A stretch of DNA of 64,000 bases from an uncultured bacterium (lineage in GTDB: Bacteria > Oederibacteriota > Muellerivitia > Muellerivitales > Muellerivitaceae), in contig CAZGWJ010000003.1 of assembly GCA_964529445.1 (NCBI GenBank), forward strand, positions 5,592-69,591. Reading direction: 5' to 3'. A program made the position numbers and the translations under genes. Positions within the stretch are counted from its first letter, which is position 1; every line of letters starts with the position of its first letter. Positions 4,101 to 61,670 of the stretch are shown here, piece by piece. The notes below the pieces were generated by a model. It ran no database searches. It was not told the origin of the DNA and was given only the letters and a program-made list of their open reading frames with translations.

Positions 4101-4248
4101 GATTTCACCAACCTATCACTCCCGCCCCAGAGGGTCAAGAAAGCCTCGAGCAACGCCAGATTTCGATCCGGCGCGAAAACGCAGTGCTTCGCAGAATGCG
4201 GAAAACCGCCTAATACAAAGGAAGTCCCCTCATCCCTCATCCGGTTCG

Positions 4249-5760
4249 CTACCACTCGTAACGAACACCGGCCGTCCAGACCCTCGAATCGAAGGTATCC
4301 CTCATGCGGGTAAACCGGCCCTCGGCAAACAAACCACCCGCCAGGAGCTGTTCGGCGGCGGCCTCCCAGGATGGCCGTTCACCCTCGACCGCCTTCTCGC
4401 GGAAATCGAGCCGTGTTTTCGTGTCCAGGGTCAATTCCAATCCGCCGGCCACCTCATTGCGCCGGGCTGCGAGGGATGTCAGGAGGGTCTGGCACTCGGT
4501 CCTCACGACCAGTCGGCGAGCGCGGGGAATGAAAGAGGCGCTCATGGAAAGGTCAACGTGGACGGCGGGTCCATGGAACCCCCCGATCCACGGTGCGATA
4601 CCGGTAGCGTAATGGATACCCGCATCCAGGGAATCACCCGGCAGGTACCGGAGACCCACGCGATCCTGCCGGAAATGGGACGGTTCCCCGCCGCCCTCCG
4701 ACCGTTCGGAACCCGCATGGAATCCCAGGGCTCCGTAATGGCCCTGCAATCCGGCGGCCAGGGAATAACGCGGCGCCTCTCGCGTCTCGAAATCGCCCCG
4801 CAACGCCAGGTCCCCCATCACGATACCCAGCGCATCGAACGATTCCGTGTTCTGGACGAACCCCCTCGTCCGGGCCGGCGCGGCATCCTTTCCCTCCCAA
4901 AGGGTCCTCTCGACGCCCGTCGCCAGCTGGCTCTCGACGAACCCGGCCATGTTGAAAAGGGTCCGTGCTTCGACCCCGGCCTGCCGCGCCTCGATCGCGG
5001 AATCAACAGCCCTTTGCGCATAGGGCTTCAGGGACCATTCGTTGAAGTGCCCCACACCGCTCCGGACCTCGCCGTACAGGGATGTCCACCTCGCGCCCGA
5101 AAGGGTCTTCAAGTCCAATGCCCCTCCGGCCAGCCGGGTATCGCCCTTCCAGTCGCGACGGCATCGGCCGGTCACCGTCCAGGCATCGACTTCCCCGTCC
5201 CGCCGGTCATCCTTCATGCGGAAGGATCCCGCCAGAGTGCCCAGGTCACCCGGGAATCGGACATGAGCCCCCGCGCGATGCGGCACGCCGGCCCACCCAC
5301 CGGCAATAAAAGGCGTGTCCGGATCGAAGAGCGGGGCCCTCAGATGGATCACACCCCCTGCCGCGGAGGGACCCCACCAGGCGGAGGCCGGGAAATCATG
5401 GGCCTCCACGGTTCCAGCTCCCGAGGGAAGGATCCCTTCCAATGCCATTGCGGGAAGAGGGCAGGCCAATCCCTCAAAGAACAGAGAACCCGGCGCGAAG
5501 GAGAAGGGATTCGCGCGCGCCAGCACATAGGACGACCAACCTTGGAACGGATCCCGCGCGAGAAGCGGATCCAGGACCCGCAATTCATGGGACAGGTCTC
5601 CCGCGAAATAATCGGCTCCCGGGAAACCGAGAATCTCCCCTGCTCCGAAGGGACGTCCCCGGTCGGCTGTCAGGGCGAAAACCGGGGTCGAGAGGAGACC
5701 GAGAACGACCGCAAGCAGGAGGGACCCGGATCGGAAGTGATCGCATTGAGAGCGCATCAT
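4249..5760 (-). CDS. Putative outer-membrane beta-barrel protein with a TonB-dependent-receptor-like plug motif
   Basis: Signal peptide, a GGVIHLR plug-like motif, and a C-terminus ending ...GVRYEW, which is a beta-barrel terminal aromatic. At 503 aa it is short for a TBDR, so the family call is tentative. Confidence 0.5.
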   Translation of the reverse strand: MMRSQCDHFRSGSLLLAVVLGLLSTPVFALTADRGRPFGAGEILGFPGADYFAGDLSHELRVLDPLLARDPFQGWSSYVLARANPFSFAPGSLFFEGLACPLPAMALEGILPSGAGTVEAHDFPASAWWGPSAAGGVIHLRAPLFDPDTPFIAGGWAGVPHRAGAHVRFPGDLGTLAGSFRMKDDRRDGEVDAWTVTGRCRRDWKGDTRLAGGALDLKTLSGARWTSLYGEVRSGVGHFNEWSLKPYAQRAVDSAIEARQAGVEARTLFNMAGFVESQLATGVERTLWEGKDAAPARTRGFVQNTESFDALGIVMGDLALRGDFETREAPRYSLAAGLQGHYGALGFHAGSERSEGGGEPSHFRQDRVGLRYLPGDSLDAGIHYATGIAPWIGGFHGPAVHVDLSMSASFIPRARRLVVRTECQTLLTSLAARRNEVAGGLELTLDTKTRLDFREKAVEGERPSWEAAAEQLLAGGLFAEGRFTRMRDTFDSRVWTAGVRYEW

Positions 5761-6859: not shown

Positions 6860-8047
6860 TCAATCCCGTGCCATCCGGGAGAGTTTTCGGAACCCCTCCG
6901 CAAGGTCAGGATCCTTAAACTCGAGGGTCCTGCGGTCGAAATGAGTCCCCGGGTCCCACAGCATGGGACACATGCCCAACCGGTAGAACCGCTCCGCCAC
7001 CGTTAAAATGTAGCGGCGCACGCTCGCTGGCTCCTTCTTCGTAGTCGACCCGTATTCGCCTAGGATGATGGGCACTCCCTGGTCGAGGAAACGTTCCTTG
7101 AGCTTTTGCACGTTGGAATCCAGCTCCTTCAGGTCCTCCGGTGTGCCCCAGGTCATGCGCATCTTGCCCCAGGATTCGTCCTTCTCCAGCCCCGCGAAGG
7201 TGTAGGGGGTGTAGTAGTGGACGGAGGCGATGCAACGGCTCGCCGGGTCCTGCGGCATGAGGAAGAGCGGGTGTACCGTCAGGTCGATGTCCGTGCAGTA
7301 TCCCGCGATGAGGAGATGGCGGTTCCCGTTCCTGCCCCCGCTCGCCCGGACGAGGTCGACGAAGACCTGGTTGATGTCGTTCAGGATGCCATAGGCCCTT
7401 TTCCGCTGTTCCTCGGTTCCCCCGCCCCAGCGGTTCCACACGTCGCCGAAACAGCCCTCCTCGTTCAGGGATTCGAAGATCAGGGCGGCCGGGTAATCGG
7501 CGAAATACCCGGCGATCTGCGACCACACGGTCTTGTACTTCTCCATGCTCTTGTCGGGTTCGGTCGGGAACTTGGACCACCAGCCGCCGTCCCAGTGGAT
7601 GTTGACCACCGCGACCATCCCCTCGGCGAGGACCCAATCCACGATCTGCCGCACGCGTTTCAGCAGTTCGGGTTCGATCTTGTGCTTGCCGTACATCAGG
7701 TTCGACCAGGCCACGGGGATCCTCACCGATTCGAAACCGGAGGCCTTGATTTTCGCGATCATCTCCCTCGTGGTCTCGGGATTGCCCCAGGCGGTCTCGT
7801 AATTGACGACCTCCTGTCCCTTGATCCAGTCGCCGCAGGCCTCCATGGTGTTGCCCAGGTTCCAGCCCAGGCCCATTTTCCGGACGGCCTCGACGGAGGT
7901 GACATCCTCCAGGGGCATCGTTGCGGCTTGCGGGGGTGCAGCGGCCTTCGTGTGGACGGTCTTGCCCGAGGAGGCACAGGAGGCGAGGAAGGCGGAAAGG
8001 AACACGAAGGCAGGAACGAGGATCGATCGGAAGGCGGCGGAAGTCAT
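6860..8047 (-). CDS. Glycoside hydrolase family 5 (endoglucanase/mannanase-like) lipoprotein
   Basis: Start chosen at MTSAAFRSILVPAFVFLSAFLASC (lipobox), ATG at 8045-8047. GH5 motifs present: GWNLGN, IFESLNEEG, ILGEYG. Confidence 0.75.
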   Translation of the reverse strand: MTSAAFRSILVPAFVFLSAFLASCASSGKTVHTKAAAPPQAATMPLEDVTSVEAVRKMGLGWNLGNTMEACGDWIKGQEVVNYETAWGNPETTREMIAKIKASGFESVRIPVAWSNLMYGKHKIEPELLKRVRQIVDWVLAEGMVAVVNIHWDGGWWSKFPTEPDKSMEKYKTVWSQIAGYFADYPAALIFESLNEEGCFGDVWNRWGGGTEEQRKRAYGILNDINQVFVDLVRASGGRNGNRHLLIAGYCTDIDLTVHPLFLMPQDPASRCIASVHYYTPYTFAGLEKDESWGKMRMTWGTPEDLKELDSNVQKLKERFLDQGVPIILGEYGSTTKKEPASVRRYILTVAERFYRLGMCPMLWDPGTHFDRRTLEFKDPDLAEGFRKLSRMARD

Positions 8048-8223
8048 GGGAATCCCCCTTGCAGGAATGCCAGCAATGTACCGGCATCGCGGGCGCTTGG
8101 CAAACCCATCCTGGAAAATAAAGCGAGAAATCGGTTCACTCAAGGGTTTGAGTGGGCCGACCCTCCGGCGGAGCGACCGCCCACATCCACAGACCCAAAC
8201 AATCACGAAGCACCAGTCACTAT

Positions 8224-9708
8224 CTATCGCCCGGTGTTTTCGTAGTTCCGCTGGTATTTGGGCCAGGGGGATGCAGCCAAGACGGATGAGTTGCATTCTT
8301 CTATGGCGAAAAATCCACCGCTCGTGCCAACATAGATCTTTCCATCTCTCCCAATCGCCGGAGATCCATTCGAACCCTCGCCACCGATGTATTCCCAACG
8401 TAACGTCCCATCAGGATGATATGCGTGCACAAGCGGTCTGGTTGCGCCACTTGCAGCAGCCACATAAATCGTTCCATTTGCCGCGATTGTGGGCGATCCA
8501 ACACAAAACCCTGTGGGCACTTGCCATCTCAGCGAACCATCCGGATTCACGGCAAACAATGCGTTACCGCCCACGCCATACCTCGTGAAATAAACCGTTC
8601 CGTCTGCGCCAATAACCGGTGAATGGCCGAGCCATAATCCTGCATTATATCGCCACTTTAACGAGCCGCTCGGATCAAACGCATACAAATATCCATCCCG
8701 CCCCAATGTATATATTGTTCCATCCTGTCCAATGGCAGAGCTTCTCGGAAATGAATCTTCCGCCTCATAGGACCACTTCAACGTTCCATTCGGATTGAGA
8801 GCATAATATGTCGTAGCTCCTGCGCCAAAGTAGATGGTGCCATCGTTCCCGATCGCCGGCGTGGAGTTAACACCACCACTTGTCAAATAGCTCCACTTGA
8901 CACTCCCGTCCGGCTTTAATGCATACAGTCGCTTATCATCAGACCCGACATAGATTGTTCCATCGGAGCCGATGGCAGGACATGAGTAGCTCGTATCAAA
9001 CGTAACAGACCATTGCAGTGTTCCATTCGAATTCAGGGCAATCAATTCATTGGTAGCGGGTGCTGCCGTAAAATATATCGTTCCATCCGCGCCGACAGCT
9101 GGGTCGTTTGAGAAATAATCATTACTCGGGTAATCCCATTTAGGACTCCCATCCGGATTGACCGCATAAATCGAAGACCCGCGAAAATAGAGCGTACCAT
9201 CGGTCGCGATCGCCGCGCACTGTCCTGTGTACCATCCTGGATAAACCCACTTTTGAACGACCAGGGAATTGCATATCTGTGTAGGATTGAATGTACACGT
9301 GGAAGTAGGCGTGTCTGTTGCAGTGGCTGTATCAGTATGCGTCACCGTTGTAGTACCAGTGGATGTTAACGTTCGGGTTGCGGTCTGCGTATTCATCGAA
9401 GTCGAGGTATTTGTAGGGATCGAAGTAAACGTTCGAGTTGGTGTCGTTGATGTGCCGACGGGAGTTAGCGTTTGGGTTGCAGTATGCGTACTTATTGGAG
9501 TCGGTGTATTTGTCGGACTCAGAGTAAGCGTGGGCGTTGGTATCATCGTGGACGTCGGAGTCGTATTCATTCGGGCCGCCGAGAGAGGAGGCACCGATAT
9601 CTTCTGCTTACAAGCAGATAAAGGCAAAGTGATACCGGCTATAAGGGCTAGGATAATAACGTTTCCAACCGCACGACTAATTCCCGAGTAAATGTTCATA
9701 CGAACCAT
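8224..9708 (-). CDS. Lipoprotein with a Thr/Pro-rich linker and a PQQ/BamB-like beta-propeller repeat domain
   Basis: Lipobox LPLSAC. A roughly 100-aa T/P/S low-complexity linker. Repeated 'DGTIYFG/DGTLYA...LKW' blades typical of PQQ-type beta-propellers. Noticeably lower GC than its neighbours. Confidence 0.65.
   Translation of the reverse strand: MVRMNIYSGISRAVGNVIILALIAGITLPLSACKQKISVPPLSAARMNTTPTSTMIPTPTLTLSPTNTPTPISTHTATQTLTPVGTSTTPTRTFTSIPTNTSTSMNTQTATRTLTSTGTTTVTHTDTATATDTPTSTCTFNPTQICNSLVVQKWVYPGWYTGQCAAIATDGTLYFRGSSIYAVNPDGSPKWDYPSNDYFSNDPAVGADGTIYFTAAPATNELIALNSNGTLQWSVTFDTSYSCPAIGSDGTIYVGSDDKRLYALKPDGSVKWSYLTSGGVNSTPAIGNDGTIYFGAGATTYYALNPNGTLKWSYEAEDSFPRSSAIGQDGTIYTLGRDGYLYAFDPSGSLKWRYNAGLWLGHSPVIGADGTVYFTRYGVGGNALFAVNPDGSLRWQVPTGFCVGSPTIAANGTIYVAAASGATRPLVHAYHPDGTLRWEYIGGEGSNGSPAIGRDGKIYVGTSGGFFAIEECNSSVLAASPWPKYQRNYENTGR
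9270..9600. repeat. Imperfect tandem DNA repeats encoding the Thr/Pro-rich linker of the 8224..9708 lipoprotein
   Basis: Reiterated units of the type gtgggcgttggt / gtcgg(a/t)gt on the + strand. They produce the spurious V-rich + ORF 9269..9691. Confidence 0.6.
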
Positions 9709-11562: not shown

Positions 11563-12230
11563 CGCACCATACCTTCCTGCCTCAGCTGGTGGCGGCACTT
11601 GAAGCACAGGGTCCCGTACCCCTCCACCCAGGCGGTGTGCTTGAACGGCACCTTTTTCCCGCACTTCGCGCAGAGGTGGGTTTTATCCATGCTCGGAACG
11701 TTTTTTGACCGCACCCTTTCCCTTTCCAACTCTGCCCACGCCTCCAGTTCCTTCTCGATCCATCTTTCGTCAACCGGCATAGCGTCCGAACATTCGCAGA
11801 CACCGTTCGGCGTATCTGATTGACAGAGACGTGTCTTCCTGTCTGGGAACCAATGGCCGCATTTCCGGCAGAAGAGGTTGTCCTCCGCCACGCAGCAGCC
11901 ACCCAGGATCACCAGTCCTTCCCGAACAGCTTCATCCAAATCGGGTTGGCCCCTCAAAATCAGACCGTAGATGATGAGCCCGATCTCGGACAAAGCACAC
12001 TTCGGGCAGACCTCGCCCTGAACGGCGCTCCGGACCTCATCCTTGATTTTGTTCTTTCGCATGGATTCCTCCAGTAGACAAACCATACCACCACCCAGGA
12101 ACACGATGGCCGCCTGCAATATTGCGAAAACATTGCCATAAGCAGCACTGTCCATGACATGGTTTATAATTAGGTCATCAAATAACCCGAGGTTCGCCAT
12201 GACCCCCATGTCCAGCGGTCGCAAACCCAT
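11559..12230 (-). CDS. Cysteine-rich putative zinc-ribbon protein
   Basis: Several CxxC pairs: CPKC, CRKC, CAKCGKK, CFKC. No other recognisable domain. Confidence 0.45.
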   Translation of the reverse strand: MGLRPLDMGVMANLGLFDDLIINHVMDSAAYGNVFAILQAAIVFLGGGMVCLLEESMRKNKIKDEVRSAVQGEVCPKCALSEIGLIIYGLILRGQPDLDEAVREGLVILGGCCVAEDNLFCRKCGHWFPDRKTRLCQSDTPNGVCECSDAMPVDERWIEKELEAWAELERERVRSKNVPSMDKTHLCAKCGKKVPFKHTAWVEGYGTLCFKCRHQLRQEGMVR

Positions 12231-13314
12231 GATCTATCTCGCAGGCCCCATTACGGGCTGCAAGGATCACCAGGTTCACGGCTGGCGCGACGCCCTGATC
12301 AAGGGTCGTTCCGAAAGCTACGAGTTCATAGACCCCACTCGCCGACTAAAGCTCCAGAAACATAAATCCCCTGAAGAATATGCGCGCCTCATCGTCGAGG
12401 GTGACCGCCAGGACATCATGGAATCCGATGCGGTCCTGGCGCACCTTTGGAAGGAGTCCATTGGAACCGCCATGGGAATCATGGCCGCATATTCCTACAA
12501 CAAGCCTGTTGTCGTGGTACTTCCCGAGAGCAACGAGAGCGCGGCACTGCGACAGAATCACACCATCCGGTTCTACGCACGCGCCATCGTGAAGTCTCTA
12601 CGAGAGGGGATGGAAGCTCTGGACGAGATCTTTGCTGGAGCCACAGCCTGGAGGTTCCTCCACGAGAACAGGAGCTTCCCTGAAGATCTTAGCGAGACCG
12701 AGATCCTCAACCGACTCAAAATGATCTCCATGTCCTGCGGCCGGGACTCAATATCTACACCCCGAAGGCTTTTAGACCGCATCCTGGTCCGTATCCAGGC
12801 ATTGCAAAGGGAAACAATCACCGAAAAAGACTTGAATGATGCCGCACAGGCCATCCTTGAGGAGGAAGACCCCTGCATGGCCGTAAAGATGAAGGAATTC
12901 CTGAAAAGTCGAAGGAAGAAAGCCACCCTCACCCCTACACCGACCGCGAGAGAGGTCATCGTGTCCGGCGGCGACCATCAGAAGAGCATGTGGGGTGACG
13001 GGCAAATACGGTCGCTGAAGGATATACCCGATAAGAGCGGGGCGCGCGCGCTGCTGCGTCTTGTTGCCTCAGTAGATGGCGTCGAGGCTATTCACCTGGG
13101 GGCTTTTGATGGTGACAATTGCAGACCTCAAAACACTCATCAACTCCGGGTGTACAGTGATAATGGCCAGAACGTCATCTTCGCCCGCATCCATGGCCGG
13201 GGGGTCTATAAGCACTGGCAGGATTGCACGATCACGATCTCCGGAGTGGATTTGACACGTTTTCGACAGAACCTGATTCAAACTCTACAGATGGCTGGGA
13301 TGCTGTGTTCCTAA
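12199..13314 (+). CDS. Nucleoside 2-deoxyribosyltransferase-like (Rossmann) N-terminal domain fused to an unknown C-terminal domain
   Basis: MIYLAGPITG...H..W......SDAVLAHLW...GTAMGIMAAYSYNKPVVVVLP matches the Ndt/DUF4406-type fold. The C-terminal 200 aa are unassigned. Confidence 0.55.
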   Translation: MTPMSSGRKPMIYLAGPITGCKDHQVHGWRDALIKGRSESYEFIDPTRRLKLQKHKSPEEYARLIVEGDRQDIMESDAVLAHLWKESIGTAMGIMAAYSYNKPVVVVLPESNESAALRQNHTIRFYARAIVKSLREGMEALDEIFAGATAWRFLHENRSFPEDLSETEILNRLKMISMSCGRDSISTPRRLLDRILVRIQALQRETITEKDLNDAAQAILEEEDPCMAVKMKEFLKSRRKKATLTPTPTAREVIVSGGDHQKSMWGDGQIRSLKDIPDKSGARALLRLVASVDGVEAIHLGAFDGDNCRPQNTHQLRVYSDNGQNVIFARIHGRGVYKHWQDCTITISGVDLTRFRQNLIQTLQMAGMLCS

Positions 13315-13474
13315 ACGTGGCCGAAATGACTTCGAATGGTTGTTACACAATGATTCGTTTTGATCAGATATCAGCGAAAGGCCAATACCTTTTGCTTCAT
13401 GATCATATCAGGCCGAGGAAAACGGCTCATTTTGTCAGCAAACCACATACTGTCTTTATTTGAAAGCGTGCCCC

Positions 13475-14635
13475 ATGCACTCGTACGGAAAAATAAACGA
13501 ATACGACCCCCGCAGAGGCCTGGGCACCGTCTCCGACTTGTTGATACCTGACACCTGCAATGTATATTTCCAGTTTGATACTATTCGTCATATCTTTCCA
13601 GGATTACATGATCCCAAACAGAAAGATCTCATAGGCAAACCTCTCTGGTACGAATATAGCCCTCACCCAGAAAGACCGCAATTGTATCGAGCTTACTGTC
13701 CTCCACAAGATCTAACAGAAGACTTTAAGTATTCCTTGCACCACAGAATACTTAGCATATGGAAAAGCTTGTCACAGGATATTACTTCCGATCAGCGCCG
13801 GGTTGCCGCGGAACTTTACGGTGCCGTCTATTTAGAAAAGCTCGATGCTTCTCGGGTCCGGTTAGCCGCAAATAAGGCACGTGCCGATGCCGAAGAAGCG
13901 ACGCGCCGGACGATTGCGCTTGAGGAAAAACGCATAGCAGATCAGCTGGCTAACCTTCATGCTATGAGGCGAGAATTAGAAGCCTCAAAAATGGATACTC
14001 GTCTCACCACAGAACAGACTTCTCGGATCAAAGATATCTGCCGTGAGCGCGGTATTTTGCAGCTGGTTCATTTCACTCAATCGCAGAATCTGGAATCAAT
14101 TCTAAAATACGGCCTAGTGCCCTTAACGGAACAGTTGACCATGAAACGCAGGGGCATTCACCCCCTGACCTCGGACAGCGTCAGGCATGACGGTCAAAAC
14201 AATGCTGTATCTCTTAGTGTTGGTTTTCCAAACTACAAGATGTTTATGCGCAAACGCTGCGACCTGATAAATAGCAGTTGGGCCGTCCTCGTTTTAGATC
14301 CCGCCATCCTTTGGGAATTAGATTGTTCATTCTGCCCCGAGAATGCGAGTTCTAATGCGGTTCGTCACATAGATGGCGGATATTTGTCTTTGAATACGCC
14401 CGAGCATTTCGGGTCTCTTTTCCAAGAATCCATTCGTAATGTCTCCAATCCACACTTTACGAGCAATCCTCAAGCCGAGGTCCTTGTTCGCGGCTGGATC
14501 TCACCCGACTATATTCGCGAAGTGATAACCGACACGAAACACCCGTTTTTTGGCCCCCGTTCAGACTACAACCACTGGAAACGCCCCGACGAGTCAGGCA
14601 CGATAACAGGAGATGAAAGTGATTTTCATGGATAA
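13475..14635 (+). CDS. DarT-like ssDNA ADP-ribosyltransferase (DUF4433) C-terminal domain with a roughly 180-aa N-terminal coiled-coil extension
   Basis: The C-terminal part LVHFTQSQNLESILKYGLVP ... AVSLSVGFPNYKMFMRKR ... QAEVLVRGWISPDYIREVI follows the DarT motif order: IYHITH..NL..IL, FYF..RSPM, and the catalytic E in QAEFLV. ATG at 13475; the upstream TTG at 13460 is an alternative. Confidence 0.6.
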   Translation: MHSYGKINEYDPRRGLGTVSDLLIPDTCNVYFQFDTIRHIFPGLHDPKQKDLIGKPLWYEYSPHPERPQLYRAYCPPQDLTEDFKYSLHHRILSIWKSLSQDITSDQRRVAAELYGAVYLEKLDASRVRLAANKARADAEEATRRTIALEEKRIADQLANLHAMRRELEASKMDTRLTTEQTSRIKDICRERGILQLVHFTQSQNLESILKYGLVPLTEQLTMKRRGIHPLTSDSVRHDGQNNAVSLSVGFPNYKMFMRKRCDLINSSWAVLVLDPAILWELDCSFCPENASSNAVRHIDGGYLSLNTPEHFGSLFQESIRNVSNPHFTSNPQAEVLVRGWISPDYIREVITDTKHPFFGPRSDYNHWKRPDESGTITGDESDFHG

Positions 14636-15308
14636 CCCTAGGGCCATCCGCCCCGTCTTCACTCCCCTTGATGCTCCGCCTTTTTATAAGAAATTCATGG
14701 TGGAGTTCAATTGGTTCCCCGGACTGAGCCATTCTCAAACGTCCCGTTGCATTAACTCACTTCATGCTGCCGCCGATTCATTGAGTCTCGCCCCTACCCT
14801 GGAAGTCTCCACTCGTTCAAATGACAATTTAGGCCGTGCATTGAGCGCATTTAACTTATCTCTCAGCATGGGTGGAATAGAAGCCCCGATCGAATGTTTC
14901 TTTCAAGGGAGCAAGGTTTTCGAGCACGGTGGGCCCTACTCCGATCTCTATCACGCTACCGCCCACGATGCCAAGACCGATCCACGAATCAAACAATCGG
15001 GTTCCATTACCGGGTTCGAAATGGTCGGTCGTCGTTACCCCATTTACCCCCGAACGTCCTTCTACGATCATTTGTATATACGTGTTCTATTCGAGAATCC
15101 CAATCTTCTAGATGCTGCCAGTAAATACGCATCTTTTACGGACATTGCGTTCAACCCCAAGAAATCCCTTAACTGCCAAGCCCAGTCACTAGCCATTTGT
15201 GTCGCTTTAGCCAACATTGGCCTCATAGAACAATATGCTATGGATCCCGATTCCTGGTTCCTCGCCCAAACGAATCATGACGATACCCAACAGTCGCTTG
15301 GTATCTGA
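14613..15308 (+). CDS. Hypothetical protein overlapping the DarT-like gene by 23 bp; candidate cognate antitoxin
   Basis: 231 aa with no macrodomain motifs. Coupling to the upstream gene is inferred only from the 23-bp overlap. Confidence 0.45.
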   Translation: MKVIFMDNPRAIRPVFTPLDAPPFYKKFMVEFNWFPGLSHSQTSRCINSLHAAADSLSLAPTLEVSTRSNDNLGRALSAFNLSLSMGGIEAPIECFFQGSKVFEHGGPYSDLYHATAHDAKTDPRIKQSGSITGFEMVGRRYPIYPRTSFYDHLYIRVLFENPNLLDAASKYASFTDIAFNPKKSLNCQAQSLAICVALANIGLIEQYAMDPDSWFLAQTNHDDTQQSLGI

Positions 15309-15363: not shown

Positions 15364-17571
15364 TTATTGCATCAGCATTTCGGACTGCATTTTCCCGCCA
15401 TTCTTAATATACATATTAACCTCCTCATTGGTCATCTCATCGCTTCGTTTTTCCACCTTCCACACGTGCTCATGTATCAGCTTATCTCGCACTCGCTTAA
15501 TTTTTTGCAATTGCTCGGCCCACTCTTTTACAAGCACCCCTTCATCGCGCAATCTATTGATATAGTCTCGGGTTGTTTCGTAAGAAGCTCCCAAATGTTT
15601 CATTGGCACTTTTCTTTTGTAATATTTCAGCACCTGCTCAAAACCCGCCGCGAAATATAACCCCGCCGTCATACGATCCCTATACTTCTCAAACATATAT
15701 TCGGCCGTGGTAAAATAATCATTCTTTCTCACAATTCTCGCCAATTCCTCATCCCTGGCTTTTAACAAACGCGTTTCTTGTCTTTGTATTTCTTTCATGT
15801 TATTCATAACCGCTTGCTTTTCCGCGATTATTTTCTCCAACTCTTCACTCAACACATCTTTTTCCTTTATTGCTTCTCGATATGCCTTATTCATTTCCAA
15901 CAATTCGCTTTTAACATCGTCATACACATCTCCCACTTCTGAGTCCCTAGCCCTCTGAGACTCAATGTATACCTCGTTGTCTTCATATATCCGGACAAAC
16001 ACAAATACCATTAATGGGCATATAATAATCGCACTTAACCATAAATATATTGAACGATTAATCGATTTGTACTTTAGCCAATACTGCGGATCTCTGAACA
16101 ACTCATCGGTAGAAAAGATAGCTGCGGAAAACAGACTTTTCCAGAATCCGCGATTCAACGATCTCGAATACTTGACTTTCATACCGTGCATTTGATTATC
16201 ATCTTCAGGATATGTATGTTCCCATTTCGTTATATGCCTATCAGTCGGATTTTTGTGTGAGCTTTGATAAATCCACAATTGTTCTTTCCCGTCCGTTCTT
16301 TGAATCTCCAGATATCCAGGCGCTGATTCAACTATACTTACTAAGTGCTTTTTGAATTCATCGTCATTTCCAACGCCCGCGTGCGTTGCATTTGCCAGCA
16401 CCTCAATCGTTTTCAAATAATATCTAAAATTCGATTCATACCTATTTTCCAACGACGAGTAATACTGATGTTGATTTACGGCATAAAGCAATACCGTAAG
16501 TAGAATGCCTGTCAACATTCCACTAGCTACAGACCTTAGACGATCAGTCAAAAATGTTTGGAATACGCCCGTATTATGAAATCGAGGAAATACCACTTTC
16601 TCGACTGGGTTGCTTTCATCATTTACTTTCCGAAATATAATCCGCCCCACGCTCTTCTCGCTGCATATATTTTCACTATATTTATCAAGCACGATCTCTT
16701 TACTCTCATGTAGAAGTGACTGGATTTCATTGGCCATTTTCTCCAATACTTCCGTTGAACCAGATATTCTCGGTTTCGAGGATATTGTTATTGCCCCCCA
16801 TTCTTGACATAGCACATCTATACACAATACATTGCTTGCGTTTTTTTCCATTATTAAATTATTATGAACAAACGTTTTTTCACATGAACCAATCCAACTA
16901 TGTATTTTTTCAACTAATGCTTTGATATATTCATCATCCATATCAAATGCCACAATACTTTTGTACCTTTTGGCCGAGCATTTACCAGCGATATTTGAAT
17001 CCATAGGCACATCGTCGGCAGTATCGGAAAATGCATAACCAGGGAGAAACATAGAGACCACTATTTTGATTACAACTATTATCATCACATATATTGCTTT
17101 TAGCAAATAGTAGACAATAACTAGTGGTAATACTATTGGCAGTACTACCAATACGTAAATAGCAAACATCGTGCGATACCATTTTGGTTTATCTTTGCAA
17201 TATCTTTCGACACCTTTGTAATAACCCTTCTTAGCGCCTTTAATAAATTCATATATTGCACTCGATATCCTCGAGTATGCACTTCTCTCCTTTTGTTCAC
17301 TCCCATTATCCACCGCACTATTCACACCCCGGTCTTCACTTCGGAATCCCTGTTGGAATTCAAATGCCGCTCCGGAAGCTTTTTGCACTAACCTTCCTCT
17401 AATCGCCATTCCCACTAATTCAAATATTATTCGTATTGGACCGCCCTTAATAATCCACAATAACAACCGTAGTACTAACACTGTAACTTCAACAACGAGT
17501 GTAAATATGGTTATCTTGCGATAACCACCCGGATCCATCTTCTTTCTTATCATTTCAATTGATTCAGTCAT
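15364..17571 (-). CDS. Large multi-pass membrane protein with a C-terminal coiled coil and a possible HEPN-like R-x4-H motif
   Basis: 735 aa with several hydrophobic helices, for example LVVEVTVLVLRLLLWII, AIYVLVVLPIVLPLVIVYYLL, LTGILLTVLLYAV and IYLWLSAIIICPLMVFVFV. The C-terminal coiled coil contains ...RVRDKLIHEH. Confidence 0.5.
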   Translation of the reverse strand: MTESIEMIRKKMDPGGYRKITIFTLVVEVTVLVLRLLLWIIKGGPIRIIFELVGMAIRGRLVQKASGAAFEFQQGFRSEDRGVNSAVDNGSEQKERSAYSRISSAIYEFIKGAKKGYYKGVERYCKDKPKWYRTMFAIYVLVVLPIVLPLVIVYYLLKAIYVMIIVVIKIVVSMFLPGYAFSDTADDVPMDSNIAGKCSAKRYKSIVAFDMDDEYIKALVEKIHSWIGSCEKTFVHNNLIMEKNASNVLCIDVLCQEWGAITISSKPRISGSTEVLEKMANEIQSLLHESKEIVLDKYSENICSEKSVGRIIFRKVNDESNPVEKVVFPRFHNTGVFQTFLTDRLRSVASGMLTGILLTVLLYAVNQHQYYSSLENRYESNFRYYLKTIEVLANATHAGVGNDDEFKKHLVSIVESAPGYLEIQRTDGKEQLWIYQSSHKNPTDRHITKWEHTYPEDDNQMHGMKVKYSRSLNRGFWKSLFSAAIFSTDELFRDPQYWLKYKSINRSIYLWLSAIIICPLMVFVFVRIYEDNEVYIESQRARDSEVGDVYDDVKSELLEMNKAYREAIKEKDVLSEELEKIIAEKQAVMNNMKEIQRQETRLLKARDEELARIVRKNDYFTTAEYMFEKYRDRMTAGLYFAAGFEQVLKYYKRKVPMKHLGASYETTRDYINRLRDEGVLVKEWAEQLQKIKRVRDKLIHEHVWKVEKRSDEMTNEEVNMYIKNGGKMQSEMLMQ

Positions 17572-17617: not shown

Positions 17618-19189
17618 CTATGTATTTGTGTTCGTTAAATGCCTACCAACATGTCCAATGACTATCTTTTTAACCGCATGATCCCGATACATATGTATCG
17701 ACAAACACTTATTCGGTTGTTTCGCGCCAAGCGTAATATGGTTTTCAAATAGTACCTTCTCGCCTTTATAGATGAATTTATACTCTTCTCCCCATTTCCC
17801 CTCCGACGTCTGTGAGATGCCATCTTTATACTCATATCCTTTCGTTCTGAAAAGGTTTCGTAGTGAGCATTGCTGACCTGCACCCGAAATACTTTTCTTC
17901 CATTGTTCTGCCACATCATTGATGGCATCCAACGCCTGAAATACGTTATCCGGTCTCGAGTATGGAGAGTCTTTTGCTGATTCTATGGCACTATCAAGGA
18001 ATAGAATATTGGTAAATCTCTCTCTCGCTGCTAACACTGCATCCAAAACCGACCCATATTCCTCATTATCCCCAGATTCACTTTGCTCCTCATTCGAAGA
18101 GCGCGTCTTGCAATTAACACACATTTGATATAGCTGTTGCTTAATGGCGTCATTTTCTTCCAGTAATCGTTGCTTCTCAATAATATTCATGTCGTTAATC
18201 TCTACCATCTCTGACCACGAACGATATAGCTCGTCATAGCTCGTTGTAGTGCGTTCCTTGATCGCTTTTATACGTTCATTTTCAACCACCGCCCTGAACT
18301 TCGCGATCTCGGACGGCTCGACATATTGCATCGCCGCCGCTTCACACACAGTGTTAAACACAGCATTCTCAAAATACCGTAATTCCCTGAATGATCGAAT
18401 CGTTGTACCAAGCCAACATTTATGGTAAGCGGAGAGATCGCCTTCTCGAAAACGCGGCCAATATATCCTCAGTGCACCGTTGTAACACCCCATCCCCTTA
18501 CCAAGAGCTTCCGATAACTTGTATGTAGTCCATTTATCCTCTAAAACCACAAATACTGCCAATCCCAGCAGCCTCTGAGCTAGAGGTGATGGATCGAATA
18601 TCAATACGTTATTATAGTTCTCTTTGGATAATACGATGATTGGGATCCGGCGTTCCGCCGTTTTAATAAATTCCACCAAACTCGGCACATCCTCGACTTT
18701 GATCACATAGACCTGATCGTTAATCTCAATCCCTGAAATAAACGCTGGACATTTCCCAACAAGCGTTTTTACGATTCGTGGTGCACCCAGCTGAATACGC
18801 GGTGGTGCAACAATGCATTCTGTAGCTGATATGCGGATTACCAGGCAGAATATGATTTCCTTGGCACCTTTCAAAACACTCACCGATATGTGCCATCGCA
18901 GTCCAGGATCGTCGTCATGCGGGTGGACCCAACTCACATCATAAAGGACAACATTATTCGAATCCTTCTCTTGATATCCCTTCACTTCAATTCGGCTTGC
19001 ATCTTCCAATAGATATTCTTTCGTCAATGTCTCGTCGATGGTCAAATCAATTTTCTGTCCACTCTCTTTTCGCGCGTTATATCTACAACATACCCATTCA
19101 TTTACTTCACGCCAAATACTCTCGAACAATTCCTTGATACCACGTTCATCGCAAGGAAAGCGAAGAATACAGGCATATACCGGATGCAT
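17618..19189 (-). CDS. Hypothetical protein of 523 aa
   Basis: Long ORF with an ATG at 19187-19189, in the same orientation and GC context as the CARF operon. No motif recognised. Confidence 0.5.
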   Translation of the reverse strand: MHPVYACILRFPCDERGIKELFESIWREVNEWVCCRYNARKESGQKIDLTIDETLTKEYLLEDASRIEVKGYQEKDSNNVVLYDVSWVHPHDDDPGLRWHISVSVLKGAKEIIFCLVIRISATECIVAPPRIQLGAPRIVKTLVGKCPAFISGIEINDQVYVIKVEDVPSLVEFIKTAERRIPIIVLSKENYNNVLIFDPSPLAQRLLGLAVFVVLEDKWTTYKLSEALGKGMGCYNGALRIYWPRFREGDLSAYHKCWLGTTIRSFRELRYFENAVFNTVCEAAAMQYVEPSEIAKFRAVVENERIKAIKERTTTSYDELYRSWSEMVEINDMNIIEKQRLLEENDAIKQQLYQMCVNCKTRSSNEEQSESGDNEEYGSVLDAVLAARERFTNILFLDSAIESAKDSPYSRPDNVFQALDAINDVAEQWKKSISGAGQQCSLRNLFRTKGYEYKDGISQTSEGKWGEEYKFIYKGEKVLFENHITLGAKQPNKCLSIHMYRDHAVKKIVIGHVGRHLTNTNT

Positions 19190-19370: not shown

Positions 19371-20531
19371 TTATCCGTTGCCAAGCACCATGATTCGTTC
19401 CCTATCCAAAGGAAGCTCATATACTCTCCGGTCGTTGCGTGACACTTTCTTGCCCTGGAAATCCAGGTAATGGGCCAGATCCGGAAATTGCTCCTCGATC
19501 TTCTTCTTAAGTCTCGACATTACAGGGCGCCAATTCTGAGCGTTGCGGATACTTTTCACCCACTCCTCATCCGTAAACATCCCCTTCCCCATAGCGAGTC
19601 TCTTGAGAATCGTCATATCTCTATCGTCAAAATCGATTTCCGCGTCCGGATCACCGCTGGGCGCGCTTAAAGCACAACCCCGCTTATGGCACGTAGCGCA
19701 GTTTTCAGCTTTGGGCTTGGTCGGGCATAGCTTATATCTGAACTTTCGTTCCGCCATGATCGCCAACCACCACAATTCACGCGGAGCGGCATCGAGTTCC
19801 TGGCCATTGATCGTTATCAAGTGTTGCTTATCGTCGAAATTAACAACAAGTCGAGGGGCTTCCAGTGCCTCGTTTAGCGCCGGAAATACTTTTCTCAGCG
19901 GCTTGTTCAGCAAGTCCTTCCGCGATCTCATAATGGTGTTTCTAAGTCTCGGGAACGGGACTTCGAACAGGTTTGTCCAATTCGCTTCTTTGGGCTTGTT
20001 TACGCGGGGATAGAACCAATTTGGGATCGAGTTGATCTTTGCTTCAGGACCGTTCAACAGGACATGAAACAGCTCGTCTTGCGGTCGTGCGTACACGGTC
20101 ATCCCAAGGATCATGTAGGCTGACATGGTCTTGCGCCCCCCCGCCAGCAGGACATGAAGGTCTACGTCGTCCTGGGCGGTCCAATAGCGCATCCTTTCGG
20201 CGATAGCCTCCTCCATAATCTCGTTGTCGTCCTTGTTGTCCAGGTTCCTGCTTTTCATCCCGCCAGGTATCCTCACAGTCGCCCTGGAGAATTCGGGCCT
20301 GGGGATCTTCTTGGAAGACAGCCTGTATTCCGAATACAGCTTTTCAACAGGGTTCTTCTTGGGATCAAGGAAGCCACGCTCCTCCATACGGGCGAGACCC
20401 GATGCGGTCGTGAGGACTTCGATAAGATGAATGGGCTTCTTTCTCTTGATCCAAAATTCGTACAGGGCATTTGTCAAGACCTGAGGTGTCATGCCCATTC
20501 CAGCAAGTAGGACATTTCGTCTAGCGGTCAT
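19371..20531 (-). CDS. CARF-domain protein (Cas_NE0113-like) with a C-terminal Cys-cluster / winged-helix-like region
   Basis: The N-terminus VLLAGMGMTPQVLTNALYEF and the second motif HVLLAGGRKTMSAYMILGMTVY match the two CARF signature motifs of the NE0113 family. The C-terminal CPTKPKAENCATCHKRGC resembles a zinc ribbon. Overlaps the upstream gene by 11 bp. Confidence 0.6.
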   Translation of the reverse strand: MTARRNVLLAGMGMTPQVLTNALYEFWIKRKKPIHLIEVLTTASGLARMEERGFLDPKKNPVEKLYSEYRLSSKKIPRPEFSRATVRIPGGMKSRNLDNKDDNEIMEEAIAERMRYWTAQDDVDLHVLLAGGRKTMSAYMILGMTVYARPQDELFHVLLNGPEAKINSIPNWFYPRVNKPKEANWTNLFEVPFPRLRNTIMRSRKDLLNKPLRKVFPALNEALEAPRLVVNFDDKQHLITINGQELDAAPRELWWLAIMAERKFRYKLCPTKPKAENCATCHKRGCALSAPSGDPDAEIDFDDRDMTILKRLAMGKGMFTDEEWVKSIRNAQNWRPVMSRLKKKIEEQFPDLAHYLDFQGKKVSRNDRRVYELPLDRERIMVLGNG

Positions 20532-21993
20532 TCTTCATCCCCTCGACGTCGTCGATCGTCTTCTTGAGAAGCTCGAGATTCTCGCCAAGATCCCTTTTAA
20601 ACTTGGCGGGTTCACGCATGATGATCGACAGGGACTCTTTGGAACAAAGATTCCTGAACTTCCTCAATCGGTGCATTCTCTCACGCAATCCTGGGCTGAA
20701 ACCCGCCTTGCCGAGTGCGCCGATGAAATCCATCTGGAAATCCTTGCGTTCGCGGCTATCCAATGGAACGTTGAACCGCACCGAGCACCAATTCAGAAGA
20801 TAGAAGAAAGTGTACTCATAGTAACGCGCGGCAAGAATCAGCTGATCGTGCTTATACTCGGCATTCGCGTTATTGAGTGCAACACGCATTAGATGCGAGG
20901 CCTCCGCCGAAGTGATCTTGACACGAGCAGCCTCGAAAGTCGTTCGCACAAGGTGTCGCCATTTCGAGATCGTCGGTTGGACATCCTCTACCGATTCCCA
21001 TATCTGCAGATTCGCCTTCTGGACTAGATTTTCGGCGAACGAGTGGATATCACCCTTCATTTTCGGATAAGCTTCTTGCTGTAAATACCGTAAAGTACTC
21101 GACTCGACCACGCCGACAACTTCAACTGCCTTATCCTGCAATTTTCTGATCTCCTTTTTCTTATCAAAGAGCGCTTTTAATAGCGTGCCAACAGCGACAA
21201 CCAGCATGGCTGGCGGGAAGAAATGCGCACTCGCCCAAGCCAGAGTATGCCAGCCCATCGCCAGAACAACGGTTCCCCCAGCAGCCGCCAGTGCACCCTT
21301 GGTCGCGAAATCGACCGTATCATTCCAATCCAACCTGATCCCCTGCAACTTAACGGTTCCTTTGAGCCCAGTGTCCCAGTCTTTCGCAACGAAAGAGTTC
21401 CAGTCCTTGGCAATTTTCACAGCTGTTTCATTTATGGCCGTCTGGACAGCAACCCTGACTTGTTCCTCGCCGACATGTCGTACTAAGATTCTTGTCAGGA
21501 AATTGTCTGGGATTCTTTCTTTTTGTTTGCTAAATTTCGACTTTATGAACCGCCAAGCATTGCTAACGGTTTCTCCCATCTCACCAACAATGCTGTATTC
21601 CTTCTCAATATCTTGGCAAATCGACACCCTGCAGACATCGAAGTATCCAGCAACATGATGAATAAGATGATCGTAACTGTCCTTAAGGATCTCTTCCCTT
21701 TTTTCTATGATCTTATCCGTCATACCCTTAAGGGAGATCTCGCGCTTTTCAATCTCAACCATCAACTCACCCAAATACTCGATGCGGCCCTTTGCGTCAT
21801 CCGGTGCGGTTTTCTTGAAGAAGGGCAGATCGACGGGTATGAGTGCGTAGTCGACACGCGCCATGATCCGGTCAAGTTCGCGCTGGCGAGCCGCTTCCTT
21901 GGATTCGGTGGATCTGAATATATTGATGAACTTGGAAAACGTTTTTCGTAGAGAGGACAAGAGATTTCCGAACCATTGAAACATCGGAAACAC
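20521..21993 (-). CDS. Hypothetical membrane-associated protein
   Basis: About 490 aa with a central hydrophobic hairpin, GGTVVLAMGWHTLAWASAHFFPPAMLVVAVGTLL. Start is a GTG at 21993 or an ATG at 21984. Confidence 0.5.
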   Translation of the reverse strand: MFPMFQWFGNLLSSLRKTFSKFINIFRSTESKEAARQRELDRIMARVDYALIPVDLPFFKKTAPDDAKGRIEYLGELMVEIEKREISLKGMTDKIIEKREEILKDSYDHLIHHVAGYFDVCRVSICQDIEKEYSIVGEMGETVSNAWRFIKSKFSKQKERIPDNFLTRILVRHVGEEQVRVAVQTAINETAVKIAKDWNSFVAKDWDTGLKGTVKLQGIRLDWNDTVDFATKGALAAAGGTVVLAMGWHTLAWASAHFFPPAMLVVAVGTLLKALFDKKKEIRKLQDKAVEVVGVVESSTLRYLQQEAYPKMKGDIHSFAENLVQKANLQIWESVEDVQPTISKWRHLVRTTFEAARVKITSAEASHLMRVALNNANAEYKHDQLILAARYYEYTFFYLLNWCSVRFNVPLDSRERKDFQMDFIGALGKAGFSPGLRERMHRLRKFRNLCSKESLSIIMREPAKFKRDLGENLELLKKTIDDVEGMKNDR

Positions 21994-22080: not shown

Positions 22081-22995
22081 CTAACTCTCCATGTGCCTCC
22101 AACTGCGGCCCCAATCCACCTCGCCTTCCACGAATTCCTCGTAGGTCTTTAAGCCCTTGTCACCTTCCATAAGCATTCGGAGCCCCATCGCCGCCGGGAT
22201 CGAGATGAAGCCGGTTCCCGTGAGCATGAAAACCCCCTGCCCCACCAAACTGGCCACGGCGATCTTTCCTCCGCGGGACCCCAGTTCATTCATTTCGATG
22301 GGCTTGCCTTTATAAGCGGCCATGAGGGTCTCAAGCGCCAGAAGGGACCATCCCAGGAACGGTAAATGAAGGGTGGTGGCCGTTGAAGCCTGATCCACCG
22401 CGCCGTCCACTGTCCCCTGAAGATCGTCCATTTCAATGGGTACCGCTTGGACATCCCCTGCCAGACCTGCGGCCTCGACGGAGTCCCCCATTTCGTTGGG
22501 AACAATGACGTCAATATCGGGATTCTGCTCGATGGCGTGTTTGGCCGACTCCAGACTGGTCGAGGCCTTGGCCTGGAGTACTTGGTTCACATTGCCATCA
22601 TCGTCCTTGATGAGGATGTCATATCCGGGTTGGTTGGCATTTTCAGCCAACTCCGCATGGAGACCGTCCGGAAGATGGCCATCGTTCAGATGCTCAACGT
22701 ACTGGGTCTCGAAAAGCTTGCCCTTCACTCCGCTCACTAACCCCCGGATCTCATCGTGATCGCCCTGGTGTTCACGAACCGCCTCCACAAATCCCTTTTC
22801 GGCGGCCATGTCGGGGTATTGAAGACGGTATGCCTCGATCACTTCGGGGGCGATATTGGAATCGGAAACCCGGCCGAAGAGGATGTCCGCCACCGACTGG
22901 CCGCCGACGTAGAGGCTGTCAGTGCGGGCGACGGGGCTTTGGATGCCGGCTTTCAGGCGTTTTTTGAGGTTTTCAAGGTACGGGTTCATGGGCAC
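22081..22995 (-). CDS. Mrr-like PD-(D/E)xK nuclease domain protein with a C-terminal transmembrane segment
   Basis: GKLFETQYVEHLNDGHL...PGYDILIKDDDGNVNQVLQAKAS matches the E...D(I/L)...Q-x-K pattern of the Mrr catalytic domain. The C-terminal stretch IAVASLVGQGVFMLTGTGFISIPAAMGL is hydrophobic. Confidence 0.45.
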   Translation of the reverse strand: MPMNPYLENLKKRLKAGIQSPVARTDSLYVGGQSVADILFGRVSDSNIAPEVIEAYRLQYPDMAAEKGFVEAVREHQGDHDEIRGLVSGVKGKLFETQYVEHLNDGHLPDGLHAELAENANQPGYDILIKDDDGNVNQVLQAKASTSLESAKHAIEQNPDIDVIVPNEMGDSVEAAGLAGDVQAVPIEMDDLQGTVDGAVDQASTATTLHLPFLGWSLLALETLMAAYKGKPIEMNELGSRGGKIAVASLVGQGVFMLTGTGFISIPAAMGLRMLMEGDKGLKTYEEFVEGEVDWGRSWRHMES

Positions 22996-23658: not shown

Positions 23659-24006
23659 TCACTTCACCCTGACCCAGCAGATGCCAAGGTTGTACCGGTT
23701 GAGGTCCCGATCCTTCCGCAGATCCGGGAACAACCGGAACCACTGCAAGTACAGCGGATTGAAGATCTCCCACTTCTCCCCCGGGATCCATTCCAACACC
23801 ACTCCCTGCTTCTGCAGGGCCGGCATGGCCTGGGGCAGGTGACGCCGGATCGCGCCACCCTTCCCGTGGGAACCCCACCCCGTAATGACCTTCACGAACC
23901 GGACGCCACGCATCTTTGCCGCGGCCAGATTCACCTTCAGCTTTCGCAAGGCCTCCTCCACGGTGGGATATCCCTGCTCAAGGTTGAGGATCTCAGTATC
24001 GGTCAT
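23659..24006 (-). CDS. Smr (small MutS-related) domain protein
   Basis: LNLEQGYPTVEEALRKLKVNLAAAKMRGVRFVKVITGWGSHGKGGAIRRHLPQAMPAL fits the Smr pattern LDLHG..V.EAL..L...L......G...V.IITGKG. Confidence 0.6.
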   Translation of the reverse strand: MTDTEILNLEQGYPTVEEALRKLKVNLAAAKMRGVRFVKVITGWGSHGKGGAIRRHLPQAMPALQKQGVVLEWIPGEKWEIFNPLYLQWFRLFPDLRKDRDLNRYNLGICWVRVK

Positions 24007-24025
24007 GAAGCACCCCTTTCCCGTC

Positions 24026-24313
24026 TCAGTTCACGTGCAATTTCGGCTGCTGATTCGGAAAATCCCTATAAAACGACACGAAGGCGCGAACCCTCGCCTC
24101 GTGTTCGGCGATCTGCTCCTCGGACAACGGCTGGATGTGCGGGCCGCACTCGATCCCATAGAAGTATTCCTCGAGTTCCTCGGCGCGCTGCTCCGCGCGA
24201 TCCTGGACGTCGGACACAATGTCCTCGTAGAAAGCGCCATCCGTTTCGTCAAAGTCGGGCTCGTAGTCGAACCCGCCGTCCCAATCGGATCCGTCGTATT
24301 CAACGTGTTGCAT
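24026..24313 (-). CDS. Small acidic hypothetical protein
   Basis: Start chosen at MQHVEYDGSDWDGG (ATG 24311-24313). Its stop overlaps the upstream gene by 4 bp. Confidence 0.35.
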   Translation of the reverse strand: MQHVEYDGSDWDGGFDYEPDFDETDGAFYEDIVSDVQDRAEQRAEELEEYFYGIECGPHIQPLSEEQIAEHEARVRAFVSFYRDFPNQQPKLHVN

Positions 24314-24396
24314 GGAATTCCTCCCAATACATCGACCTGCCACTACACCCCTCACCCTGCCCTCTCCCCCAAGGGGCGAGGGAAAGGAAACAACTT

Positions 24397-44563: not shown

Positions 44564-44564
44564 T

Positions 44565-47645: not shown

Positions 47646-47778
47646 CGTTTTCAGCCCCAATCTTCTTGAATCTCAAAGCTATCTCCCACCTCATTTTTTC
47701 GACAGGATAAACAGATTACTACCGCCCACGTACACGGACAACCACGAAGTGGCAATCACAGAACATTTTGCAGGTATT

Positions 47779-48586: not shown

Positions 48587-48838
48587 ATGGATAACGCTAA
48601 TAACTGTGGTAGATACTTGAACATTCGGGAGGCATCGTCATTTCTCGGGATCGCCTCAGGCACTCTTTACCAGTGGGTCTGTAAAGCTCCTGGCCTTGCC
48701 GACCCCATACCCTTCGTCAAGTTCAGTGCCCGCTGCCTTCGCTTCCCTTTCAACGATCTTGTTGCCTGGTCCGAACGCCGCCGTTCAGGCCCCATGCATC
48801 CCACCACAACCAATAAGCGTTTTCGCGTTCCGGCATAG
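48587..48838 (+). CDS. AlpA/Xis-like helix-turn-helix excisionase or regulator
   Basis: YLNIREASSFLGIASGTLYQWV...PFVKFSARCLRFPFNDLVAW matches the AlpA family pattern. Directly upstream of the integrase. Confidence 0.6.
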   Translation: MDNANNCGRYLNIREASSFLGIASGTLYQWVCKAPGLADPIPFVKFSARCLRFPFNDLVAWSERRRSGPMHPTTTNKRFRVPA

Positions 48839-48875
48839 GTCATCCTCTTCTCGGCTGATATCACGAGGCATTTCA

Positions 48876-52994: not shown

Positions 52995-53069
<75 letters not shown>

Positions 53070-58927: not shown

Positions 58928-61670
<2,743 letters not shown>

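Follow-up and report, generated by a model that had tools for sequence, protein, structure and literature searches.

In a 64,000-nucleotide stretch of DNA from an uncultured bacterium of the family Muellerivitaceae (contig CAZGWJ010000003.1, positions 5,592 to 69,591; hereafter the window), three consecutive genes code for a protein that resembles nucleoside 2-deoxyribosyltransferases (the Ndt-like protein), a DarT-type toxin and a 231-amino-acid (aa) protein whose frame overlaps the toxin gene. We conclude, with a probability of about 0.85, that the toxin gene (13475-14635) and the gene overlapping it (14613/14619-15308) constitute a DarT1-NADAR (DarTG1) toxin-antitoxin and anti-phage module, and that the upstream gene is separate from it. 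The core finding is thus a further member of the known DarTG1 system, with a recurrent and little-described long-form toxin. An earlier note, made from the letters of this DNA, had placed the three open reading frames (ORFs) on the plus strand, where all of them were found (Table 1), and had filed the locus as a DarT-like toxin whose antitoxin would be of a novel type; the antitoxin is in fact NADAR, which was described in 2023.

The toxin carries a DarT1-type catalytic domain

Profile analysis of the 386-aa toxin yielded a match to the Pfam family DarT (PF14487) over aa 199-353 (E 4e-12, 46.7 bits against a cut-off of 22.5). This match confirmed the DarT-type C-terminal domain claimed in the earlier note, and the DarT motifs quoted there were found as well, HFTQSQNLESILKYGL at aa 199-214 and QAEVLVRGWISPDYIREVI, which holds Glu335. 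E. coli C7 DarT1 (PDB 8BAQ) was the only solved structure with a sequence match to the toxin (E 4.3e-26, aa 184-351), and the exact protein is recorded in the protein database (P0001). An AlphaFold2 (AF2) model built from 55 homologues was confident over the ADP-ribosyltransferase (ART) domain, aa 197-370, with a predicted local distance difference test score (pLDDT) mostly above 90. The top Foldseek match of this domain was again 8BAQ (5.6e-17, TM 0.74 on the target), and matches to DarT2 structures were weaker (4e-5 to 5e-3). PADLOC and NCBIfam were uninformative for all three genes, the PADLOC DarT model matching only weakly (E 0.0026).

Schuller et al. (2023; PMC11543638) found that E. coli C7 DarT1 needs residues R52, D54, M71, N104 and E152 to be toxic or to catalyse its reaction efficiently. 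The same work also names F18, F72 and the DarT1-typical S63, and describes N104 as the base-coordinating counterpart of DarT2 H119 and S63 as the replacement of a DarT2 Tyr. When these eight positions were mapped through a HMMER alignment, all eight were identical in the window toxin, C7 F18, R52, D54, S63, M71, F72, N104 and E152 corresponding to window F200, R237, D239, S248, M256, F257, N290 and E335, respectively. Nine residues, H199, F200, D234, R237, D239, N290, Q333, A334 and E335, were invariant across the 55 homologues. By homology, the window toxin is predicted to be a single-stranded DNA (ssDNA) ADP-ribosyltransferase of the guanine-specific DarT1 kind. With the DarT2-DarG system (DarTG2, represented by the Thermus and M. 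tuberculosis DarT) it shares a homologous ART fold and the logic of reversible ADP-ribosylation of DNA bases, but the window pair lacks a macrodomain partner, the toxin has Asn for the base-coordinating His and Ser for the Tyr of the H-Y-E motif, and the base it is predicted to modify is guanine, not thymine.

The overlapping gene encodes a DarT1-associated NADAR antitoxin

The protein encoded downstream of the toxin was matched by PF22397, the Pfam family of DarT1-associated NADAR antitoxins, over positions 1-208 of the 212 of the profile (E 2.5e-74, 249.8 bits against a cut-off of 27), and by the G. lovleyi NADAR structure (PDB 8BAT; E 1.6e-44). The earlier note had held this gene to be of unknown function and the partner of DarT to be missing or non-canonical; neither claim survives the NADAR assignment, which the note itself had named, beside a macro fold, as an outcome speaking against its proposal. 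Its more general suggestion that one of the flanking genes is the antitoxin likely holds for the downstream, overlapping gene, though not in the non-canonical sense intended, and not for the upstream gene.

In the NADAR of E. coli C7, the catalytic residues E88, K95 and D171 and the antitoxin-specific K115 are essential (PMC11543638). With the C7 numbering placed by motif spacing in an alignment to the G. lovleyi NADAR, these correspond to E94, K101, D177 and K121 in the window protein, so that four of the four are kept. By homology, it is a predicted guanine-ADP-ribose hydrolase. The absence of the macrodomain protein DarG, which the earlier note had remarked on, was borne out, Pfam profiles finding no macrodomain at E<=0.1 in the three proteins or in six neighbouring proteins. 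No other known antitoxin besides NADAR was found by Pfam in the flanking genes, and the PADLOC release used had no match for the NADAR protein.

Two start codons of the NADAR gene were considered. From ATG 14613 the frame runs for 23 bp over the 3' end and stop codon of the toxin gene; GTG 14619 is more likely to be the start, because an AGGAG sequence at 14608-14612 lies 6 nt 5' of it, and the NCBI call is the corresponding 229-aa protein. A NADAR frame that overlaps the toxin stop fits translational coupling of the two genes.

Pairing of DarT1 with NADAR in other loci

Scanning metagenome contigs for the pattern of a DarT alignment gave 80 DarT1 loci, in which NADAR ORFs were identified by profile. 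An adjacent NADAR gene was present in 76 of them, immediately after the toxin gene in 75 and immediately before it in the case of L104, and in the other four the contig extended no more than 172 bp beyond the toxin gene. Overlaps of start and stop between the DarT1 and NADAR genes were frequent among the 80 loci, and two loci, L003 and L004, had the DarT1-NADAR arrangement of the window. Given this adjacency in 76 of 80 loci, the window pair therefore has the ordinary architecture of the system.

When compared with the characterized DarT1-NADAR systems (E. coli C7, 8BAQ; NADAR, 8BAT; PMC11543638), the window pair belongs to the same protein families, has the same order of toxin and then antitoxin with overlapping or abutting frames, and keeps all mutationally defined residues of toxin and antitoxin; it lies in a defence island, and a role of DarT1-NADAR in phage defence is cited in Schuller et al. 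(2023; PMC11543638). It differs in the length of the toxin (386 aa versus about 208 aa), which has a putative cold-shock-like module and a predicted long helix, and in the Ndt-like gene upstream. By analogy with the characterized system, DarT1 would use NAD+ to ADP-ribosylate guanine in ssDNA and so block replication, and the coupled NADAR would hydrolyse guanine-ADP-ribose, the cell surviving until infection or stress shifts the balance to the toxin.

A side observation concerns the locus L002 (212-2954), which encodes P0002 (461 aa), the closest homologue of the long DarT1 among full-length database proteins. NADAR was undetectable in every frame of this 6.9-kb contig, where the P0002 gene is followed by a 52-aa ORF and a gene for a Fic-domain protein with the motif HPFSDGNGRIGR.

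The N-terminal extension of the long-form toxin

Relative to E. coli C7 DarT1 (208 aa), about 183 additional N-terminal residues precede the ART domain of the window toxin. The earlier note had described these approximately 180 aa as an extra coiled-coil domain, which is right in that the region is extra and contains a predicted long helix (aa 105-192), probably a coiled-coil stalk judging from the AF2 model; the first 75 aa or so, in contrast, align with a cold-shock-like module. Charged, helix-like stretches rich in E, K, R and Q likewise precede the ART domain in P0002, P0006, P0018 and P0061, and the N-terminus of the window toxin aligns with those of the L004 DarT, P0002, P0006, L085 and L092.

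Several of these N-termini have the appearance of a cold-shock domain (CSD), that of L092 for instance reading FGIVQRYNPERGFGFVS...VFLHIKTV. A six-sequence N-terminal profile aligned to a manually entered Csp alignment with an hhalign probability of 93% (E 3.2e-7, 61 columns). The homologue P0006 matches the CSD family PF00313 at 1.6e-6, and related fragments bear the NCBI label 'cold shock domain-containing protein'. In the window toxin the RNP1 and RNP2 motifs are degenerate, RGLGTV and VYFQF replacing KGFGFI and VFVHF, and a search of the N-terminal profile against PDB sequences returned only noise.

Among 72 untruncated DarT1 ORFs, 37 had at least 100 open codons 5' of the ART domain, a maximum estimate, since each ORF was counted from its most distant start codon. 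A plasmid collection contained short-form DarT matches only, with 44-57% query coverage. In the searchable literature we found no paper that links DarT to a cold-shock domain, and long-form toxins are likewise absent from the DarT1 papers searched. Long-form DarT1 with a cold-shock-like module and a helical stalk is nonetheless common in metagenomes and may give insight into ssDNA targeting by such toxins or into their regulation: the CSD-like module, of the nucleic-acid-binding OB-fold type, and the helix of about 88 residues could recruit the enzyme to ssDNA or RNA, mediate its oligomerization or regulate it.

Matches restricted to the CSD-like and helical N-terminal module of the long DarT1 were seen in cyanobacterial proteins of 100-240 aa (P0233-P0245), many of them annotated as 'partial'. 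One such gene, in Microcoleus sp. (L165, 4001-5226; JAUBOR010000014.1), is surrounded by respiratory and NAD kinase genes, and no DarT domain was called beside it; it may represent what is left of the N-terminal module or a form of it that stands alone.

The upstream gene encodes an atypical Ndt-like protein

The Ndt-like fold that the earlier note had assigned to the upstream gene was supported by a profile and by a fold search with a model of moderate confidence. PF05014 (Nuc_deoxyrib_tr) matched aa 27-128 marginally in Pfam (31.9 bits against a cut-off of 28.8), Pfam residue numbers for this gene referring to the 386-aa ORF that opens at 12154, and a Foldseek search with the AF2 model (mean pLDDT 59.7) matched YtoQ, NDT and DNPH1 at 8e-5 to 1e-3. 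We distinguished three domains in the protein, namely an Ndt/YtoQ-like Rossmannoid domain (aa ~10-131), a helical domain that resembles a degenerate ATP-cone (~134-240) and, at the C-terminus, a domain of unassigned fold, the model of which was too poor for a fold search.

Close relatives of this protein are rare. A word-indexed search of about 5.8 billion protein clusters returned only the window protein and P0080, which is 66% identical to it. An exhaustive HMMER search with a profile of these two sequences detected 1086 more distant relatives and no further close one; about 30 of the 1086 are full-length relatives of 365-390 aa (E 1e-20 to 1e-31). Nor did any further member of the clade emerge when the two-sequence alignment was used for pattern scans of contigs from genomes, metagenomes and viruses. 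We then scanned with Pfam 22 aligned full-length sequences, comprising the window protein, P0080 and 20 relatives. An ATP-cone (PF03477; best match 1.6e-11) was recognized in 19 of the 22, following the Ndt-like domain and preceding a conserved C-terminal domain. Neither P0080 nor the window protein has a PF03477 match alone; both align in this region, where the segment FLHENRSFPEDLSETEIL is without the KR..G and EPF residues of the signature (K-R-x-G...E-x-F). No fusion of an Ndt-like domain to an ATP-cone turned up in the searchable literature.

In NDT and DNPH1 the catalytic nucleophile is the Glu of a G-T-x-x-E-x-G motif. Alignment to T. brucei NDT (2A0K) placed GTAFEVG opposite GTAMGIM in the window protein and GTAiGiv in the family, so that Gly stands in the position of the Glu. 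The protein shares with NDT, DNPH1 and YtoQ (PF05014; 2A0K, 8OF6) the Rossmannoid fold and the YLAGP...GTA...GKPV motifs, and differs from them in having Gly for Glu and in its fusion to an ATP-cone-like and a C-terminal domain. With Gly at the catalytic position, a classical transferase activity or a reversal of ADP-ribosylation is therefore unlikely, and the Ndt-like domain more probably binds a ligand (a nucleotide), or acts in some other non-canonical way, than transfers glycosyl groups. The family that combines an Ndt-like domain, an ATP-cone and a variable C-terminal domain, of which at least two different kinds occur, offers a lead for nucleotide-sensing defence proteins.

Relation of the Ndt-like gene to the DarT1-NADAR pair

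At the locus of P0080 (L004), genes for the Ndt-like protein, a long CSD-type DarT1 (398 aa) and NADAR have the order and orientation seen in the window, with a gap of 50 bp between the first two genes versus 160 bp in the window. Identity between the two loci is 66% for the Ndt-like protein, 34% for DarT1 and 48% for NADAR, the L004 NADAR being no closer to that of the window than unrelated NADARs are, and the upstream flanks differ. Beyond these two loci, co-occurrence with DarT genes, which the earlier note had proposed to examine for both proteins, holds for NADAR and not for the Ndt family, a gene of which was found in none of the 80 other DarT1-NADAR loci. Conversely, DarT and NADAR genes were both absent from the 78 genome loci analysed for the wider Ndt/ATP-cone family, and all-against-all ORF clustering of these 78 loci revealed no conserved neighbours beyond shadow ORFs. 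Ten sampled neighbours of the wider family were mixed, with AAA_14/DUF4143 occurring twice, and HNH, LOG, kinase, aminotransferase and beta-lactamase proteins.

On this basis the Ndt-like gene is most likely a separate gene of the island and not an antitoxin, its independence being what we infer from the comparison of loci. The following points weigh against our overall interpretation. P0080, at 66% identity, again lies directly 5' of a long and strongly diverged DarT1-NADAR pair, and the adjacency may be maintained by selection. The ART domain is only about 37-40% identical to characterized DarT1, and the enzymatic activities of the window DarT1 and NADAR are predicted by homology. As to the cold-shock-like module, the N-terminal 75 aa of the window toxin alone had no PF00313 match, and the AF2 model of aa 1-76 had a pLDDT below 50 and was too poor for a fold search; because the window copy is degenerate and without a match alone, the term 'CSD-like' applies at the level of the family.

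The first of these points leads to the alternative that the Ndt-like/ATP-cone-like protein is a third component of long-form DarT1-NADAR, either a regulator that senses nucleotides or NAD metabolites or a second effector acting on nucleotides. The sole close relative among about 15 billion proteins sits in the same position, with the 50-bp gap, and the adjacency has outlasted much divergence, given that toxin and antitoxin are only 34% and 48% identical between the loci, whose upstream flanks differ; moreover, the window genes are on one strand and 160 bp apart. Nevertheless, we consider this alternative unlikely. It is founded on two loci (n=2), and a CARF gene (40% identity) lies near both of them, so that the synteny could simply reflect inheritance of a single island segment from a common ancestor. 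The 0/80 and 0/78 counts given above speak against it, as does the spacer, which contains a weak terminator-like hairpin (13411-13427) of only 5 pairs; in the same scan, terminator-like sites were commoner than in shuffled sequences, yet of low quality. A promoter scan was uninformative, promoter-like sites being fewer than in shuffles, and an Rfam search of 9.5-20.6 kb returned nothing relevant near the module. Finally, a two-gene DarT1-NADAR is sufficient in E. coli (PMC11543638). If such a third component did exist, the locus would represent a three-gene DarTG1 variant in which release or activity of the toxin is coupled to cellular nucleotide or NAD status. The part of the finding that keeps some novelty is the conserved position (n=2) beside DarT1-NADAR of a rare Ndt-like/ATP-cone-like gene whose catalytic site is atypical.

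A second alternative, to which we give a slightly lower and likewise small chance, is that the Ndt-like/ATP-cone protein serves another defence function of the island, linked to a HEC-07-like gene, and is a mere neighbour of DarT1-NADAR. In roughly a dozen or more loci from metagenome-assembled genomes of Actinomycetota and Acidobacteriota, the Ndt-like and ATP-cone module is fused to a C-terminal domain of the HEC-07/NsnC type (L058, L062-L065, L067-L072, L075 and L077-L082; ORFs of ~425-440 aa at ~8000-9300), and PADLOC confirmed a HEC-07-type domain in L075, L078, L080 and L082. In L083 (3322-6679), an apparently frameshifted Ndt-like gene lies directly 5' of a full HEC-07-like gene, and the window has a stand-alone HEC-07-like gene of its own (Table 1). 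In the window, however, the Ndt-like and HEC-07-like genes are on opposite strands with three genes between them, there is no HEC-07-like gene within the 6.3 kb of L004, the C-terminal domain of the window protein is unrelated to the HEC-07 C-terminus, and HEC-07 itself is merely a candidate system. Homology between the two C-terminal domains had been tried and was rejected at an hhalign probability of 0.2%. Taken together, the fusions tie the Ndt-like and ATP-cone module loosely to defence, and not specifically to DarT1.

The proposal of the earlier note, a DarT without an antitoxin of known type whose ADP-ribosylation is reversed by the Ndt-like or another protein, is very improbable: none of the three proteins has a macrodomain and the Ndt-like fold is real, but the overlapping gene codes for a complete NADAR with intact catalytic residues, which makes reversal by the Ndt-like protein unnecessary, the nucleophilic Glu of Ndt (GTAFE in 2A0K) aligns to Gly (GTAMG), as it does throughout the family, and the 80 other DarT1 loci lack an Ndt-like gene.

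The surrounding defence island

An exact 23-bp direct repeat, one copy of which forms the 3' end of a tRNA-Gly gene, together with a tyrosine integrase gene delimits a 43-kb tRNA-Gly integrative island (Table 1). The flanks have a G+C content of about 0.62-0.65, as against about 0.37-0.63 (mostly 0.40-0.55) at roughly 8-53 kb. Within this cleanly delimited defence island the DarT1-NADAR module is located some 2.3 kb from the left border, and the island also encodes HEC-07-like, PDC-M72B-like and CARF proteins in addition to the systems listed in Table 1. No CRISPR array was found in the 64-kb window.

Table 1. Coordinates of the module, its parts and the main features of the island (positions in the window)
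Feature	Position	Strand	Remarks
Left copy of 23-bp direct repeat TGGAGCGGGCGATGGGACTCGAA	9891-9913		left island border; exact repeat of 52996-53018
Ndt-like gene	12199-13314	+	371 aa from ATG 12199; ORF open from 12154
Spacer between Ndt-like gene and DarT1 gene	13315-13474	+	160 bp; weak terminator-like hairpin at 13411-13427
Long-form DarT1 toxin gene	13475-14635	+	386 aa; stop codon 14633-14635
Degenerate cold-shock-domain-like module	13481-13699	+	DarT1 aa ~3-75; GKINEYDPRRGLGTVS...VYFQFDTI
Single long alpha-helix	13787-14050	+	DarT1 aa 105-192; 88 residues; AF2 pLDDT ~70-96
ART catalytic domain of DarT1	14063-14584	+	aa 197-370
NADAR antitoxin gene	14613-15308	+	231 aa from ATG 14613; 229 aa from GTG 14619
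Stand-alone HEC-07-like gene	17618-19189	-	PADLOC E 2e-38; 4.3 kb from Ndt-like gene
GajB-like UvrD helicases	29192-31222 and 39588-41777
PDC-S68	31219-34998		1410 bits
HerA	36133-38277
Type III restriction-modification pair	41774-47660
Tyrosine integrase	48696-50042	+
tRNA-Gly(CCC)	52996-53070	-	integration target; 3' end is the right repeat copy, 52996-53018

Downstream of the module, on the minus strand, a gene at 15364-17571 encodes a 735-aa protein with hydrophobic segments, a terminal HEPN-like R-x4-H motif (RDKLIH) and weak HepT-like matches. At the equivalent position, L004 has a gene (4104-5246, minus strand) for a different, 380-aa protein with RNDLRH. Genes for the Cas_NE0113-type CARF proteins whose 40% identity is given above follow, at 19371-20531 in the window and at 5631-6341 in L004, both on the minus strand, and the CARF and HEPN-like genes of the two loci could be split CARF/HEPN signalling pairs. 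The start of the window CARF gene is overlapped by a gene for a 490-aa protein without Pfam or PADLOC match (20521-21993, minus strand). Its neighbour is a PDC-M72B-like gene (22081-22995, minus strand; E 2e-16), a homologue of which lies beside the Ndt-HEC-07 fusion in L078. A 423-aa protein encoded at 23839-25110 (plus strand) is likewise unannotated.

Outside the island, an Obg/CgtA GTPase gene (800-2092, minus strand) is a clear housekeeping marker in the high-GC flank, and long 'ORFs' in the high-GC flanks, such as 53143-55140, 56328-58133 and 60090-62102, resemble shadow frames rather than genes. Just outside the left attachment repeat, a gene at 8224-9708 (minus strand) encodes a protein that appears to be secreted and has PQQ/beta-propeller repeats and an N-terminal region of low complexity, rich in Thr and Pro; because the G+C content of this gene is below that of the flank, the drop in composition seems to begin before the border of the island.

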